Positions 1,270-33,432 of a stretch of 64,000 nt of DNA are shown in pieces. The translations under genes and the position numbers were made by a program. Under the pieces are notes generated by a model, which was given only the letters and a program-made list of their open reading frames with translations, made no database searches and had not been told where the DNA came from. Origin of the DNA: an uncultured virus (IMG/VR IMGVR_UViG_3300028283_000004) (taxonomy: Duplodnaviria > Heunggongvirae > Uroviricota > Caudoviricetes); IMG/VR virus record IMGVR_UViG_3300028283_000004, one strand, 5' to 3'. Position 1 is the first letter of the stretch; each line of letters starts with the position of its first letter.

Positions 1270-1286
1270 ATGTTTATTATCCAATA

Positions 1287-1342: not shown

Positions 1343-1371
1343 CTATTTGAAAGGAGATTGTAATATTTTTA

Positions 1372-2019: not shown

Positions 2020-2514
2020 TTATTTTTCCGTTGTTTTTCCGTCAAATTTTTCTTTACTTTCTGATGCTTCTTCTTTGGTTTTAAATACAATACCATCTTT
2101 ATGATTTGGTGGAGTGTAAATGGTGTACATTTTTAATGGTTTGTTCCCAGTATTAATAATATTATGTTCTGAACCAGAAGGAATAATTATTGCATCACCA
2201 TCAGTTACCGAATATTCGTTACCATTAATAATGCATTTACCATTTCCAGATTCAAATCTGAAGAACTGATCAATTGTTGGGTGAGTTTCCATACCAATTT
2301 CTTCTTTGGGTTTAAGAGTCATTAAGACTAGCTGCATGTGTTCACCAGTATATAATACTTTTCTAAAGTCAGTATTATCTAAAGTATCTTTTTCAATATT
2401 GGAATGAAAACCTTTTTTATTAGATTTTTTAGTTTCGTTTAATGTTGGCTTGAATGATTTATCCAATTTGCCCACCATTTCAAAAAGTAATTCTTTGGTG
2501 TTACGATTTTTCAT
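2020..2514 (-). CDS. cupin-domain protein with shared N-terminal leader
   Basis: Cupin motifs EIGMETHPTIDQFFRFESG and GDAIIIPSGSEHNIIN. Confidence 0.85.
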   Translation of the reverse strand: MKNRNTKELLFEMVGKLDKSFKPTLNETKKSNKKGFHSNIEKDTLDNTDFRKVLYTGEHMQLVLMTLKPKEEIGMETHPTIDQFFRFESGNGKCIINGNEYSVTDGDAIIIPSGSEHNIINTGNKPLKMYTIYTPPNHKDGIVFKTKEEASESKEKFDGKTTEK

Positions 2515-2557: not shown

Positions 2558-2932
2558 TTACAATTTAAGCGATTTATAATAACTATCAAACAACGATTTA
2601 ATATTAAGACTTCCCACAGGATTCATTGAGTGAATTAAAATTGTTTCAGGAAGGTCTAATTGATTATCAATACAATAATTAATTAACCATTTTGCACAAT
2701 CATAACCAGTTTTTTCGGTATCTTCATCGTATGGAGGTGGTTTAACATAATGTAAATCAGCCAAATCATGATCGAAGGAAATCATTTGTGGCATTCCCTT
2801 TTCTGTTACCGTTTTCACAAACTCGTCATAATTTTTCACAACAGTCCATCCAAGTAAGTAGACTTGATTATAGGTGTAGTCAAAACAAACTTCTGGATTG
2901 CGGAAGTCGTCTAAGAAAAGATTATATATCAT
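2558..2932 (-). CDS. cyclic-phosphate-processing receiver-domain-like protein
   Basis: LFLDDFR, ISFDHDL, TGYDCAKWL and IHSMNPVG motifs typical of this phage-common family. Confidence 0.75.
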   Translation of the reverse strand: MIYNLFLDDFRNPEVCFDYTYNQVYLLGWTVVKNYDEFVKTVTEKGMPQMISFDHDLADLHYVKPPPYDEDTEKTGYDCAKWLINYCIDNQLDLPETILIHSMNPVGSLNIKSLFDSYYKSLKL

Positions 2933-3534: not shown

Positions 3535-3570
3535 AAGGGAGGTGCAAGATTTATTTTGCGCACCCCCCTT
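3535..3570 (-). terminator. probable terminator ending the Pro/His/Gln tRNA operon
   Basis: AAGGGGGGTGC...GCACCTCCCTT hairpin followed by an AT-rich tract, directly after tRNA-Gln. Confidence 0.6.
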
Positions 3571-3578
3571 GGCTAAAA

Positions 3579-3653
3579 TGGATGCCCCACGTGGACTTGA
3601 ACCACGACTCTGAGGTTCAAAACCTCATATGCTAACCATTACATAATAGGGCA
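3579..3653 (-). tRNA. tRNA-Gln(TTG)
   Basis: Acceptor TGCCCTA/TGGGGCA, anticodon arm TGAGG-TTTTGAA-CCTCA, T loop TTCAAGT, encoded CCA. Confidence 0.92.
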
Positions 3654-3656
3654 ATA

Positions 3657-3732
3657 TGGGGTGAAATGGGGGATTCGAACCCCTCACCAACACATTCACA
3701 GTGTGTTGTGCTACCGTTACACTAAAATCACC
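3657..3732 (-). tRNA. tRNA-His(GTG)
   Basis: G-1:C73, anticodon arm ACACA-CTGTGAA-TGTGT, T loop TTCGAAT, encoded CCA; two T-T mismatches in acceptor stem. Confidence 0.8.
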
Positions 3733-3740
3733 ATATTAAG

Positions 3741-3814
3741 GGTGAATGACGGAGTACGATTCCGCAACCTTCTGAACCACAATCAGACGCTCTACCAATT
3801 GAGCTACAATCACC
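3741..3814 (-). tRNA. tRNA-His(GTG) with non-canonical T loop
   Basis: G-1:C73, D arm GCTC-AATTGGTA-GAGC, anticodon arm TCTGA-TTGTGGT-TCAGA, T arm GCGGA-ATCGTAC-TCCGT. Confidence 0.85.
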
Positions 3815-3817
3815 ATA

Positions 3818-4822
3818 TCACGAGTTTTCATAAAACTCTAAAAATTTTTCAATTTCATTTTCAATATATTCTTTACCTTCTACGGATTTAATACTTTTCC
3901 ATATTATTCTATAAACTATATATCCATTCTTTTTTAATACTTCATCTCTTTTTTCATCATGCTCACCTCTATATTTATGTTGACTTCCATCAATTTCCAA
4001 ATCAATATTTTTATCTTTAAAATAAAAGTCCAAGAAATAATTACAAGAATCATTCAAACCCAAGTCTCTTTTATTTACTGGATGATTATGAATATAATTA
4101 ATATTGTTGTTATTCAATACGTTCATAAAAAATTGTTCAGGATAACTAATTATATTTCTAGTTGCCCAACCCTTTAATAAACCATCTTTCGCTAAATTTT
4201 TCATTATAATACTACTCTTATTACGTTCCTCTTGACTTAAGTATCTATAAGTTGTTGAACATTTATTTGAACAAAACATATTTTTACTTTCCTTTTGTAA
4301 CTTTGTTAACTTATCCCCACAATGTCGGCATGATTCAATCACAATACCATTTGGTTTAAATTTCCTGATAAGTATTAAACGACAATTATCTGAGCAACAT
4401 TTAGCTCTACTAATATTTCCACTTAATGTTTTTAGAGGATTAAATTCAATATCACAAACGACACAGTTTCGTAATTTTTTCTCTTGTAAAATTTTTTCTT
4501 TAATATGTTTTATGTTTACATATTTTTTATTTATACTATTCCTAATTTTATTTTTAGTTTCATCATTAAGTATTCTATTTTTATTATTATATGTGGCAGC
4601 GCAAGAACTATTACAAAATTTATTTCTATTGGGTATTATTTCACCACAATTTAAACAAGTATTTATTTTCTTGTTTAAGTGGGACAATTCAATATTATTT
4701 TCAATAATAAACTCATTTAGTTTATCATATGCAGATTTATTTGCATATCCGAAATATTTTAAAAGCATTTCGTTTTTTGATTTAGATGTTGCAATAATTT
4801 CAAACAATTTTTCTTTTTTCAT
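3818..4822 (-). CDS. free-standing endonuclease: zinc-ribbon repeats plus C-terminal DUF559/Vsr-like domain
   Basis: Three CxxC...CSxxC repeats; SYPEQ, YFLDFY, LEIDGSQH, DEKRDEVLKKNGYIVYRI motifs; start moved to ATG 4822, downstream of the GTATTTAT motif. Confidence 0.8.
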   Translation of the reverse strand: MKKEKLFEIIATSKSKNEMLLKYFGYANKSAYDKLNEFIIENNIELSHLNKKINTCLNCGEIIPNRNKFCNSSCAATYNNKNRILNDETKNKIRNSINKKYVNIKHIKEKILQEKKLRNCVVCDIEFNPLKTLSGNISRAKCCSDNCRLILIRKFKPNGIVIESCRHCGDKLTKLQKESKNMFCSNKCSTTYRYLSQEERNKSSIIMKNLAKDGLLKGWATRNIISYPEQFFMNVLNNNNINYIHNHPVNKRDLGLNDSCNYFLDFYFKDKNIDLEIDGSQHKYRGEHDEKRDEVLKKNGYIVYRIIWKSIKSVEGKEYIENEIEKFLEFYENS

Positions 4823-4883
4823 AACATTTAATTTATTATAAATACTATGAAAGTCGAAAAAATACAAGTCGAACTATTAAATA

Positions 4884-4894
4884 TTTCAAAGAAC
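4884..4894 (-). promoter_or_regulatory. boxA-like antitermination element
   Basis: GTTCTTTGAAA after the two Pro tRNAs; matches the element at 1287-1297. Confidence 0.5.
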
Positions 4895-4903
4895 TTTTTA
4901 TCG

Positions 4904-4977
4904 TCTAGGTGACAGGATTCGAACCTGCGGACCACTGTTTCCAGAACAGCGTAGTATACCAACTGCAATACACCTAG
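4904..4977 (-). tRNA. atypical tRNA-Pro(TGG)
   Basis: Acceptor CTAGGTG/CACCTAG with A73 (Pro-like C1:G72), arm GCTGT-TCTGGAA-ACAGT (C33, A37), canonical T arm, poorly paired D stem. Confidence 0.6.
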
Positions 4978-4986
4978 TTATTTTTG

Positions 4987-5061
4987 TAGCGTAGGTGAGA
5001 TTCGAACTCACGAGTTTTCCACATCCCAAATGTGGCTGGGTGACCGCTCCCAAACTACGCT
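4987..5061 (-). tRNA. tRNA-Pro(TGG)
   Basis: Acceptor AGCGTAG/CTACGCT, D stem TGGG/CCCA, arm CCACA-TTTGGGA-TGTGG, T loop TTCGAAT. Confidence 0.9.
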
Positions 5062-5071
5062 ATGTTAAACG

Positions 5072-5100
5072 AAAAAACCCCACTCTTGCGAATGGGGTTT
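5072..5100 (-). terminator. intrinsic terminator (attenuator) of the Pro/His/Gln tRNA operon
   Basis: AAACCCCATTC-GCAA-GAGTGGGG followed by T6, about 10 nt before the first tRNA. Confidence 0.88.
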
Positions 5101-5129
5101 ACTAATCCTTACTCTTTTCCTCGAAAAAT

Positions 5130-5204
5130 TTAGATATAGTTTCCCCATTCACCATCATGTGGATGTTGTTGGGGTTGGTGTACTATACTAACTAAATTTT
5201 TCAT
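5130..5204 (-). CDS. putative attenuator leader peptide MKNLVSIVHQPQQHPHDGEWGNYI (24 aa)
   Basis: ATG 5204 to TAA 5130; eight consecutive His/Gln/Pro codons; GTGAATGGGG complementary to terminator 5' arm CCCCATTCGC. Confidence 0.88.
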   Translation of the reverse strand: MKNLVSIVHQPQQHPHDGEWGNYI

Positions 5205-5231
5205 CGCTTCTAAATAAATTAAATCTCTATG

Positions 5232-5263
5232 CAAACATATGCATTTAAAATCATAAATACAAA
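5232..5263 (-). promoter_or_regulatory. Bacteroidota-type sigma-A promoter with embedded GTATTTAT phage motif
   Basis: TTTG-N20-TATGTTTG; paralogous to 1492-1522. Confidence 0.8.
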
Positions 5264-31926: not shown

Positions 31927-33432
31927 ATGAAAAAAATAGAAACATCTGATTCAATTTTTCTGTTTCTTCAAGAAGAAGCAGATATTAATATTCTCTCTGA
32001 TAGAGAATCCGTTAAAAATTTACAGAATAACGACAAAAAAACATTTGTTTATTATTCTACGGAATTATCAAAAAAAGAAATTATAAGAAAATCAATCAAA
32101 TATCATAAAAACGAAATTCTTGAGAAAATTTTTGCCAGAAAATGCATTATATCTGAAATAGATAATATTAATAAAAATCGATTTTTAAACCAAAATCACA
32201 TACAAGGAACAGACAAATCAAACATATGTTACGGAGCGTTTCACGAAAATAAATTAATTGCAGTATTGGCGTTTGATGATAAAAGAACATTTAGCGGTGG
32301 AAAAACAGAAAACGAATATGAATTATCAAGATTTGCCACAGATAATAAATATATTGTTATGGGTATTTTCCCTAAAATGTTAAGTGCTTTTATAGATCAG
32401 TATAAACCAACTAAAATCACAACATTTGCCAATAAGAGATGGACATTAAGTAAGGATAATATATATTCAAAAAATGGTTTTAAATTAGTAAAAACATTAC
32501 CCCAAGATTATCTTTATTATAAAAACAATAAAATATTTCACAAATTTAATTTAGGCAAATCGCAAATCAAATTAAAATTTCCAAATGTTTTTGATGAAAA
32601 GAAAACAGAATCTGAAATGGCTGAAGAGCTTGGGTATTCTAAAATTTGGGACTGTGGCAAATATAAATATCAACTATTTCTAGATTCAACACAACACGTT
32701 ATATTTGGTTTTATTTATAAAATTACTAATACAATTAACAATAAAATATATATTGGTCAAACGACAAGAGAATTAAGCAAAAGAATCGGTGAATATAGAA
32801 AATCTATGTTATATGATAATGTTAATTGTAATCAACATCTATATAATTCATTTAAAAAATATGAATTTAATAACTTCAAATTTGAGGTTATTGATACAGC
32901 CAAAGATTTAAATGAATTAAATGAAAAGGAAATAAAATACATCAAACAATTTAATTCAAACAATAAGGAGTTTGGGTACAACATTGAATTGGGAGGTAAA
33001 AATGCAATTCCCGATACCGACACGCTTGAGAAAATGTCTAGATCACATTTAGGAATTGTTCAAAGTGAACAATGGGTTGACAGAAGAATTGCTAAGGCAG
33101 GTAGTGAAGATGCTAAAAAATATGGTAAATTAAAAACTGAAGAAGAAAGAGAATATTTATCAGTAAATTCCCCTATGTTTTGGAAAGGTAAAACACGTGA
33201 CGAAGAAACTAAAAATAAAATCAGTAAAACAAAACTTGAAAACGGGTTATCTGAAAAACAAAAATCTGTTATTTGTAAAAAAGTTTATAAAATAAACAAA
33301 AACACCAATGAAATTATTAATGTTTTTGAATCCACATCACATGCATCAAAAATTGAGAACGTTAATCAATCGACAATTTCAAGATGGTGTGCAAATAATA
33401 AAGTTGTTAAAGGTATGCAATGGAGATATTAA
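31927..33432 (+). CDS. composite homing-type endonuclease: Hef-associated N-terminal domain + GIY-YIG + NUMOD-like repeats
   Basis: ARKC...FLNQNHIQG...ELSRF...IWDCG, then GFIYKITNTINNKIYIGQT...GYN, FWKGK, and a C-terminal NUMOD1/HTH-like segment. Confidence 0.8.
   Translation: MKKIETSDSIFLFLQEEADINILSDRESVKNLQNNDKKTFVYYSTELSKKEIIRKSIKYHKNEILEKIFARKCIISEIDNINKNRFLNQNHIQGTDKSNICYGAFHENKLIAVLAFDDKRTFSGGKTENEYELSRFATDNKYIVMGIFPKMLSAFIDQYKPTKITTFANKRWTLSKDNIYSKNGFKLVKTLPQDYLYYKNNKIFHKFNLGKSQIKLKFPNVFDEKKTESEMAEELGYSKIWDCGKYKYQLFLDSTQHVIFGFIYKITNTINNKIYIGQTTRELSKRIGEYRKSMLYDNVNCNQHLYNSFKKYEFNNFKFEVIDTAKDLNELNEKEIKYIKQFNSNNKEFGYNIELGGKNAIPDTDTLEKMSRSHLGIVQSEQWVDRRIAKAGSEDAKKYGKLKTEEEREYLSVNSPMFWKGKTRDEETKNKISKTKLENGLSEKQKSVICKKVYKINKNTNEIINVFESTSHASKIENVNQSTISRWCANNKVVKGMQWRY

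Follow-up and report, generated by a model that had tools for sequence, protein, structure and literature searches.

Why phages carry transfer RNA (tRNA) genes, and when they use them, has been debated for decades, and the locus described here raises that question in a specific form: can a phage make its tRNAs only when the ribosome runs short of them? We examined 64,000 nucleotides of DNA from an uncultured virus (IMG/VR record IMGVR_UViG_3300028283_000004; Caudoviricetes), called the window below, in which a short leader open reading frame (ORF) and a predicted intrinsic terminator precede an operon of Pro, His and Gln tRNA genes on the minus strand. An earlier note on this DNA had proposed that the leader is a ribosome-mediated attenuator, of the kind that controls trp, his and ilv operons, whose output is the tRNAs themselves. 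The module is a real and conserved feature, and we put at roughly 85% the probability that it belongs to a set of attenuators, coupled to translation, through which the phage makes its tRNA blocks as they are needed. This reading is drawn from sequence, and the observations behind it are the anatomy of the modules, their conservation, the match between leader codons and tRNAs, the covariation of the regulatory pairing and the geometry of the predicted switch.

The anatomy of the first module was read from the minus strand (Table 1). The promoter-like element, the leader ORF, the terminator and the Pro, Pro, His, His and Gln tRNA genes lie where the earlier note had placed them and in that order, and rereading of the sequence upheld its run of eight consecutive His, Gln and Pro codons in front of tRNAs for the same three amino acids. 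Its proposed antiterminator also stood, region 2 of the leader being able to pair with the 5' arm of the terminator over 10 bp, including one G-U. The endonuclease that it placed between the tRNAs matched DUF559 and is probably a homing endonuclease. The final terminator survived in part: a 12-bp GC-rich hairpin is present and is the likely end of the operon, but its U tail is interrupted and the terminator scan gave no call for it. Only 10 nt separate the U-run of the leader terminator from the first tRNA-Pro, and a separate tRNA promoter therefore has no room there. His, Gln and Pro make up 8.2% of the residues encoded by the long ORFs of the window, compared with eight consecutive codons in leader 1 (binomial P = 3e-4 for the whole peptide), and the leader RNA folds with z = -4.4. 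The codon run, the fold z-score and the conservation in relatives exclude a chance origin of the module.

A second module of the same design was found further along the minus strand, at 1522-1308, in front of Asp, Glu and Val tRNA genes; its leader RNA has a fold z-score of -4.9. The first 19 nt of the promoter are identical in the two modules, and this 19-mer occurs at exactly two sites in the window, each preceding a tRNA leader. The tRNA-Val gene is followed by Leu, Ala and Trp tRNAs in relatives, and operon 2 probably continues past the first base of the window.

When IMG/VR was scanned for exact copies of the promoter 19-mer, 24 loci were obtained. Leader 1 is present in 23 of them, with the consensus MKNLVNIxPQPQQHPQDGEWGxYA, and Pro/His/Gln tRNAs lie downstream in 21; two of the remaining three stop at a contig edge just past the terminator, and the third is a chance match with neither leader nor tRNAs. 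Two of the relatives are large phage sequences of 327,676 and 362,763 bp with 42 and 55 tRNA matches, respectively, mostly within ∼40 kb. Each carries four promoter, ORF and terminator modules, situated 200-500 nt 5' of the first tRNA of a block. Type 1 leaders (e.g., ..PQPQQHP..) are followed by Pro, His and Gln tRNAs; type 2 leaders (e.g., MKNLFDILVAVLMVDVLLWAAEEDDLCVVG) by Asp, Glu, Val, Leu, Ala and Trp tRNAs; type 3 leaders (e.g., MRTFGTYYYGKKSYKKQ...) by Lys and Tyr tRNAs; and type 4 leaders (e.g., ...STSTSSRNGNGIFCS.FTGRN...) by Thr, Cys, Asn, Ile, Ser, Phe, Gly and Arg tRNAs. Together the four blocks cover all 20 amino acids if Met is counted in block 2; the Met tRNA of the relatives lies several kb further on, and no separate leader was found for their distant Met and Leu tRNAs. 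Pattern scans for the other types recovered at least 25 true members of type 2 (25 of 117 among the matches listed), 21 true matches of 43 for type 3 and 12 of 16 for type 4. After deduplication, 18, 20, 13 and 11 distinct leaders of types 1-4 were analyzed, types 1 and 2 including those of the window; loci L015, L120, L133 and L147 were left out, their terminators misfitting a simple U-run rule. The expectations that related tRNA clusters would keep the leader ORF and that its codon content would track the tRNA content were thus borne out, in four leader/operon types, one of them represented by module 2 of the window.

The correspondence between codons and tRNAs was examined by position as well as in total. 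In pooled residue fractions, every leader type is most enriched for its own tRNA set, and vice versa. We defined the sensor window as the codons whose occupancy of the ribosomal A-site leaves region 2 uncovered, the footprint being taken to extend 13 nt beyond the first base in the A-site. The cognate fraction of type 1 leaders was 0.457 in the sensor window, 0.168 in the rest of the ORF and 0.082 in the long ORFs of the window; the corresponding values were 0.808, 0.365 and 0.35 for type 2, 0.515, 0.133 and 0.131 for type 3, and 0.894, 0.563 and 0.438 for type 4. The boundary codon is the last cognate codon in 58 of the 62 leaders. Enrichment of cognate codons is limited to positions at which stalling would keep the antiterminator strand uncovered, and the pattern repeats in four unrelated leader sequences. 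In one divergent type 1 contig, L081, the Pro/His/Gln block includes an Arg tRNA and the leader an Arg codon (HQRPQGQPP); a search for further contigs with this combination of Arg codon and Arg tRNA returned only L081 again.

The antiterminator helix (regions 2 and 3) is maintained in all four types, by covariation or by invariance. In type 2, 81.8% of the cells in the alignment of 20 sequences are paired, compared with ≤43% when the partner is slid, and both partners change in four pairs; covariation scored 0.154, compared with 0.064 after shuffling, and none of 500 shuffles reached the observed value. The type 2 terminator helix likewise covaries. Duplexes between a sensor strand and its own terminator arm are more stable than non-cognate combinations in type 2 (-13.74 versus -13.19 kcal/mol, p = 0.0054) and in type 4 (-11.35 versus -9.33 kcal/mol, p = 0.0071). 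The helix is invariant in types 1 and 3, where its energies are -13.6 and -10.3 kcal/mol, respectively, compared with -4.3 and -3.8 kcal/mol for shuffled sensors; in the 18 type 1 sequences, 98.6% of the cells of an 8-bp core are paired. The divergent contig L081 holds a compensatory change from U-A to C-G (GAAU/CAUUC to GAAC/CGUUC). The expected covariation of the pairing was accordingly found in types 2 and 4 and at this one type 1 position, and was absent among the 18 close type 1 relatives. RNAalifold returned the terminator and a spacer hairpin only. A helix closing the start on the stop of leader 1 was also considered and rejected, 86% of its positions being paired without covariation.

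In the free leader RNAs of both modules, region 1 is predicted to pair with region 2 and the terminator to form, a fold that fits termination when the leader is untranslated. The effect of a ribosome was modeled by restricting the folding to the RNA downstream of the footprint, and the positions that follow are those of this model rather than of a measurement; full-length masked equilibrium folds, which gave ribosome-spanning pairings and mostly retained the terminator, were replaced by this model. In module 1 the antiterminator, with 10 pairs, is predicted when the A-site is at codon 14 or earlier, codons 15-16 are intermediate, and the terminator is predicted from codon 17 to the stop. In module 2 the antiterminator is predicted up to A-site codon 22, before region 4 emerges, is reduced to 4 pairs at codon 23 and is lost from codon 24. 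The control codons end at codon 16 in module 1 and at codon 22 in module 2, and the modeled switch falls there in both. Folding with a masked footprint, from which the earlier note had expected such a change, thus places it precisely where the control codons end. The attenuator layout that it had recognized is complete, with a short ORF, cognate codons, a terminator and mutually exclusive pairings, together with a geometry that agrees in the model.

The most serious competing account, which we nevertheless regard as improbable, is that the terminator is constitutive and leaky, or is the 3' end of a small RNA, so that the tRNAs are made by unregulated readthrough and the ORF has no sensing role. 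The long hairpin plus terminator of the free RNA resembles a stand-alone small RNA, equilibrium folds mostly retain the terminator, and positions 5072-5221 (-) have a weak full-length resemblance to the Bacteroides small RNA BTnc231 (RF04180), scoring 24.8 bits, below the family gathering threshold of 80.4. Such an RNA would leave unexplained why each of four leaders spells out the amino acids of its own block, why the cognate codons end at the footprint boundary and why a coding segment covaries with the 5' arm of a terminator.

Several features suggest that the leader ORFs are coding. The ATG, frame and stop of leader 1 are conserved in 18 distinct relatives, in which differences of length amount to whole codons and the Pro and Gln codons vary synonymously. 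The third codon position is the most variable in all four leader types, and all frames are open. These are signs of coding that a functional micropeptide would show equally, with third-position variation as in any gene, and the strictly conserved motifs SRNGNGIFC, VLLW, KSYKK and EWG could be taken in the same way, the resemblance to the tRNA sets then arising by chance or from some other cause. We judge this explanation less probable still: the nucleotides of the type 3 region 2 (GAAUCGGG) are kept although the frame differs in two relatives, all four leader types peak on their own tRNA set, and the ORFs invariably have a promoter on one side and, on the other, a terminator directly in front of tRNAs. 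Direct sensing of tRNA without a ribosome, with the codon run as a set of specifiers in the manner of a T-box, is the least credible alternative, for although tRNAs are both output and presumed signal and the leader has a terminator/antiterminator pair, searches of the region to E = 1 and E = 10 gave no Rfam T-box match, the start, frame and stop are conserved with whole-codon insertions and deletions and a third-position bias, and a leader has up to ∼25 different codons, unlike a single specifier loop.

Translation-coupled attenuation must itself be set against a number of contrary points. The one metatranscriptome run with any of this DNA (6% of the sampled words) gave nothing on the leader, yielding no more than a tRNA-like fragment and a contig of 151 nt that falls within the endonuclease ORF. 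Helix 2:3 of type 1 shows no covariation because it does not vary among the 18 close relatives, and the sole compensatory case comes from one divergent contig. The terminator was often kept in the full-length masked folds, and a kinetic trap must be assumed in module 2 since the terminator wins at equilibrium with region 2 free; the same assumption is made for classical attenuators. Pooled P values overstate independence because the sequences are related. The codon match is also imperfect in detail. The earlier note had linked the exclusive use of CAA for Gln to the UUG anticodon, and this holds for the three Gln codons of the window leader; across the type 1 relatives, the association of a CAG codon with tRNA-Gln (CUG) is not significant (p = 0.21; both at 15 loci, the CAG codon alone at 3, the CUG tRNA alone at none, neither at 1). 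A His codon is kept at 2 of 19 type 1 loci with no His tRNA seen in the available sequence, some type 4 clusters have tRNAs with a CAU anticodon and a leader lacking internal Met codons, and some leader residues are non-cognate, such as the N-terminal MKN, Ile, and Gly and Ser in type 3. Finally, in several relatives the first tRNA lies 180-530 nt beyond the terminator, sometimes with an extra small ORF in between, and other promoters could sit in these spacers.

From the sequences we infer translation of the leader, function of the terminator and regulated readthrough, and the attenuator would operate as follows. Transcription would start from a Bacteroidota-type promoter, and a ribosome would translate the short leader ORF. 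With fast decoding, the ribosome would run to the stop and cover region 2, the terminator (3:4) would form, and the polymerase would stop before the first tRNA. A ribosome stalled on the control codons, which are those of His, Gln and Pro in module 1 and of Val, Leu, Ala, Trp, Asp and Glu in module 2, would cover region 1 and leave region 2 free. Free region 2 would pair with the terminator 5' arm (2:3), and the polymerase would read into tRNAs for the same amino acids. Because the new tRNAs would relieve the stall, the arrangement would amount to negative-feedback control of tRNA supply. We further infer that the sensed quantity is the usable tRNA supply rather than the amino acid. For a wider proposal the odds appear about even: the leaders of the clade may form a four-channel "tRNA-stat," in which the tRNAs for 20 amino acids are divided among four operons, each gated by a multivalent leader that senses ribosome speed. 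A block would be switched on when anticodon nucleases cleave the host tRNAs or when the A+T-rich codon demand of the phage exceeds what they can supply, and off by its own products, so that the system would be both a translation-sensing counter-defence and a supply controller. The part given to host anticodon nucleases as the trigger is conjectural.

Attenuators of the trp/his type (hisL RF00514, trp, leu and pheA) share with these leaders a short promoter-proximal ORF, regulatory codons, alternative 1:2, 2:3 and 3:4 hairpins, a terminator before the regulated genes and, in the mechanism proposed here, an antiterminator freed by a stalled ribosome. They regulate genes for amino-acid biosynthesis or synthetases, whereas here the terminator precedes tRNAs and inserted endonuclease-like ORFs; the enterobacterial his, trp, leu and pheA leaders differ further from those described here, which have a Bacteroidota-type promoter and a phage location. 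The leader fell short of the Rfam His_leader family (RF00514), scoring 22.9 bits (E = 0.094 in a 301-nt search) with a gathering threshold of 49. The thr leader (Thr/Ile) and the ilvGMEDA and ilvBN leaders (Ile/Val/Leu) respond to several amino acids, any of which when short leads to readthrough. The phage leaders would be multivalent in the same way, with up to ∼8 amino acids each; in contrast to the thr and ilv systems, four leaders in the relatives cover all 20 amino acids, and each would gate a matching tRNA block. The leader-peptide attenuator of pheST (pheM) controls phenylalanyl-tRNA synthetase in response to one amino acid and thus also acts on the decoding machinery, its output being a synthetase protein, whereas that of the phage leaders would be tRNAs. 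T-box riboswitches bind uncharged tRNA directly, without translation, and regulate genes for synthetases, transport and biosynthesis; these leaders, in which no T-box match was found, would likewise report tRNA status through a terminator/antiterminator switch.

No description of a leader-peptide attenuator of tRNA genes was found in full-text searches of the literature available without subscription. Attenuation of the trp/his type is known, and tRNA genes as its direct output would be the new part. The abstract of a study (eLife 2023, PMC10264068) presents the countering of host tRNA depletion by phage tRNAs as a reason for phages to carry their own; its subject is the sequence of the anticodon loop, and transcription of tRNA genes under the control of demand is not mentioned in it.

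The remaining features of the window are listed in Table 1 or described here. Its proteins include a large terminase subunit, a portal protein, a T4-like major head protein and a tail sheath, which identify it as phage DNA. Among cultured phages, Flavobacterium phage immuto has the closest capsid protein (33% identity), and this similarity, together with promoters of the TTTG/TAnnTTTG type, the Bacteroidota consensus, suggests a Bacteroidota host. Inspection of the tRNA groups of phage immuto and of LR756508, the nearest phages by capsid, revealed no such leaders before them. DNA similarity to cultured or deposited phages was confined to the endonuclease ORF (megaphage records) and tRNA-His; the leader had no match of this kind among those phages. 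The promoter 19-mer has 100 matches in bacterial and archaeal genomes, two of which carry the leader. Of the contigs L258 and L233, one, equal in length to the large relative G002, is filed in a metagenome-assembled genome (MAG) labeled Candidatus Paceibacterota and the other in a MAG labeled Anaerolinea; each appears to be a phage contig that was binned with bacterial DNA, and the leader-bearing MAG contigs therefore do not help to identify the host.

Two genes separate the tRNA operons, at 2558-2932 (-) and 2020-2514 (-); their products have, respectively, a cyclic-phosphate processing receiver domain (cREC_REC, PF20274, E = 6.6e-22) and a cupin domain. The cREC_REC family is associated with RNA-repair systems, and such a gene would fit a phage that faces tRNA damage. 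A homing/HNH endonuclease PHROG at 31927-33432 (+) adjoins the capsid gene. The 215-aa ORF inserted in operon 2 is a possible homing endonuclease, and it and the inserted ORF of operon 1 are both preceded by a common motif, TTCATAGTATTTATA. In both large relatives (G001 and G002; L036-L040), a tRNA with a CUA anticodon, labeled Pyl by ARAGORN, closes the tRNA region, in a part to which the window does not extend; this tRNA, of amber-suppressor type, hints at TAG recoding in the clade.

Other short sequence elements accompany the modules. A conserved CUCCUUUC box lies between the leader 2 stop and the terminator, at 1349-1356 (-), and in the same place in type 2 relatives; it is predicted to pair with AGGAG immediately past the U-run and thereby to lengthen the base of the terminator. 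The box resembles the 3' tail of 16S rRNA. A GTTCTTTGA(A/C)AT motif occurs at 1277-1285 (-) and 4885-4893 (-) and recurs past the type 2 terminator and before inserted ORFs. In the two large relatives it lies 22-26 nt 5' of the first Asp tRNA, and in the window 110 nt 5' of the first Asp tRNA called by ARAGORN; at some sites it forms the -33 element of a complete TTTG...TAnnTTTG promoter. As a promoter of the first tRNA after the type 2 terminator it was ruled out, being too near that tRNA. A small ORF of ∼45 codons (MAKEKSKEKKLKKLN...) is found between the type 1 terminator and the first tRNA in L002, L009, L016 and L018.

Table 1. Features of the two leader/tRNA modules in the 64,000-nt window
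Feature	Position	Strand	Sequence or detail
Promoter-like element, module 1	5263-5232	(-)	TTTG (-33), N20, TATGTTTG (-7)
Leader ORF 1, 24 codons	5204-5130 (ATG 5204, TAA 5130)	(-)	MKNLVSIVHQPQQHPHDGEWGNYI, stop
Control codons 9-16 of leader 1	5180-5157	(-)	H Q P Q Q H P H = CAC CAA CCC CAA CAA CAT CCA CAT
Region 1, module 1	5174-5161	(-)	CCCCAACAACAUCC; inside control codons; predicted to pair with region 2 in free RNA
Region 2, module 1 (putative antiterminator strand, codons 18-21)	5152-5143	(-)	DNA GTGAATGGGG, RNA GUGAAUGGGG
Region 2 partner, module 1 (terminator 5' arm)	5097-5088	(-)	DNA CCCCATTCGC, RNA CCCCAUUCGC
Intrinsic terminator, module 1 (regions 3 and 4)	5100-5072	(-)	AAACCCCAUUC-GCAA-GAGUGGGGUUU and U-run; 11-bp stem 5100-5075
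tRNA-Pro (UGG)	5061-4986	(-)	ARAGORN and Rfam
tRNA-Pro (UGG)	4977-4903	(-)	ARAGORN and Rfam
349-aa inserted ORF	4867-3818	(-)	DUF559 endonuclease-like domain, 35.6 bits, cut-off 20.6
tRNA-His (GUG)	3813-3740	(-)	ARAGORN and Rfam
tRNA-His (GUG)	3731-3657	(-)	ARAGORN and Rfam
tRNA-Gln (UUG)	3653-3579	(-)	ARAGORN and Rfam
12-bp GC-rich hairpin	3570-3535	(-)	interrupted U tail UUAUUAUU; -22.5 kcal/mol, z = -2.0
Promoter-like element, module 2	1522-1492	(-)	TTTG-N19-TATATTTG
Leader ORF 2, 28 codons	1458-1372	(-)	MKNVLDILMVALAVVLLWDEEDKLYTVG, stop
Region 1, module 2	1446-1437	(-)	CUCGACAUAU
DEED codons of leader 2	1404-1393	(-)	
Region 2, module 2	1382-1374	(-)	CUGUCGGGU; overlaps last codons and stop
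Region 2 partner, module 2	1338-1330	(-)	GACCCGACA
Intrinsic terminator, module 2	1342-1308	(-)	AAAAGACCCGACA-AUAACAG-UUGGGUCUUUUUUUU
tRNA	1268-1198	(-)	Rfam only (40.3 bits), no ARAGORN call; loop CU-GUC-AC by eye, would be Asp
tRNA-Asp (GUC)	1186-1111	(-)	ARAGORN and Rfam
tRNA-Glu (UUC)	1077-988	(-)	ARAGORN and Rfam
215-aa inserted ORF	942-295	(-)	weak GIY-YIG match, 18.7 bits, below cut-off 22.6
tRNA-Val (UAC)	248-177	(-)	ARAGORN and Rfam

If the attenuator reading is correct, these phages would monitor decoding itself and resupply tRNAs by class, and leader-peptide attenuation would extend from the supply of amino acids to that of tRNAs. The leaders would then be natural, compact sensors of codon-specific translation speed. 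Their presence would also suggest that loss of host tRNAs acts as a selective pressure; in the window, a gene associated with cyclic-phosphate RNA repair lies between the two operons.

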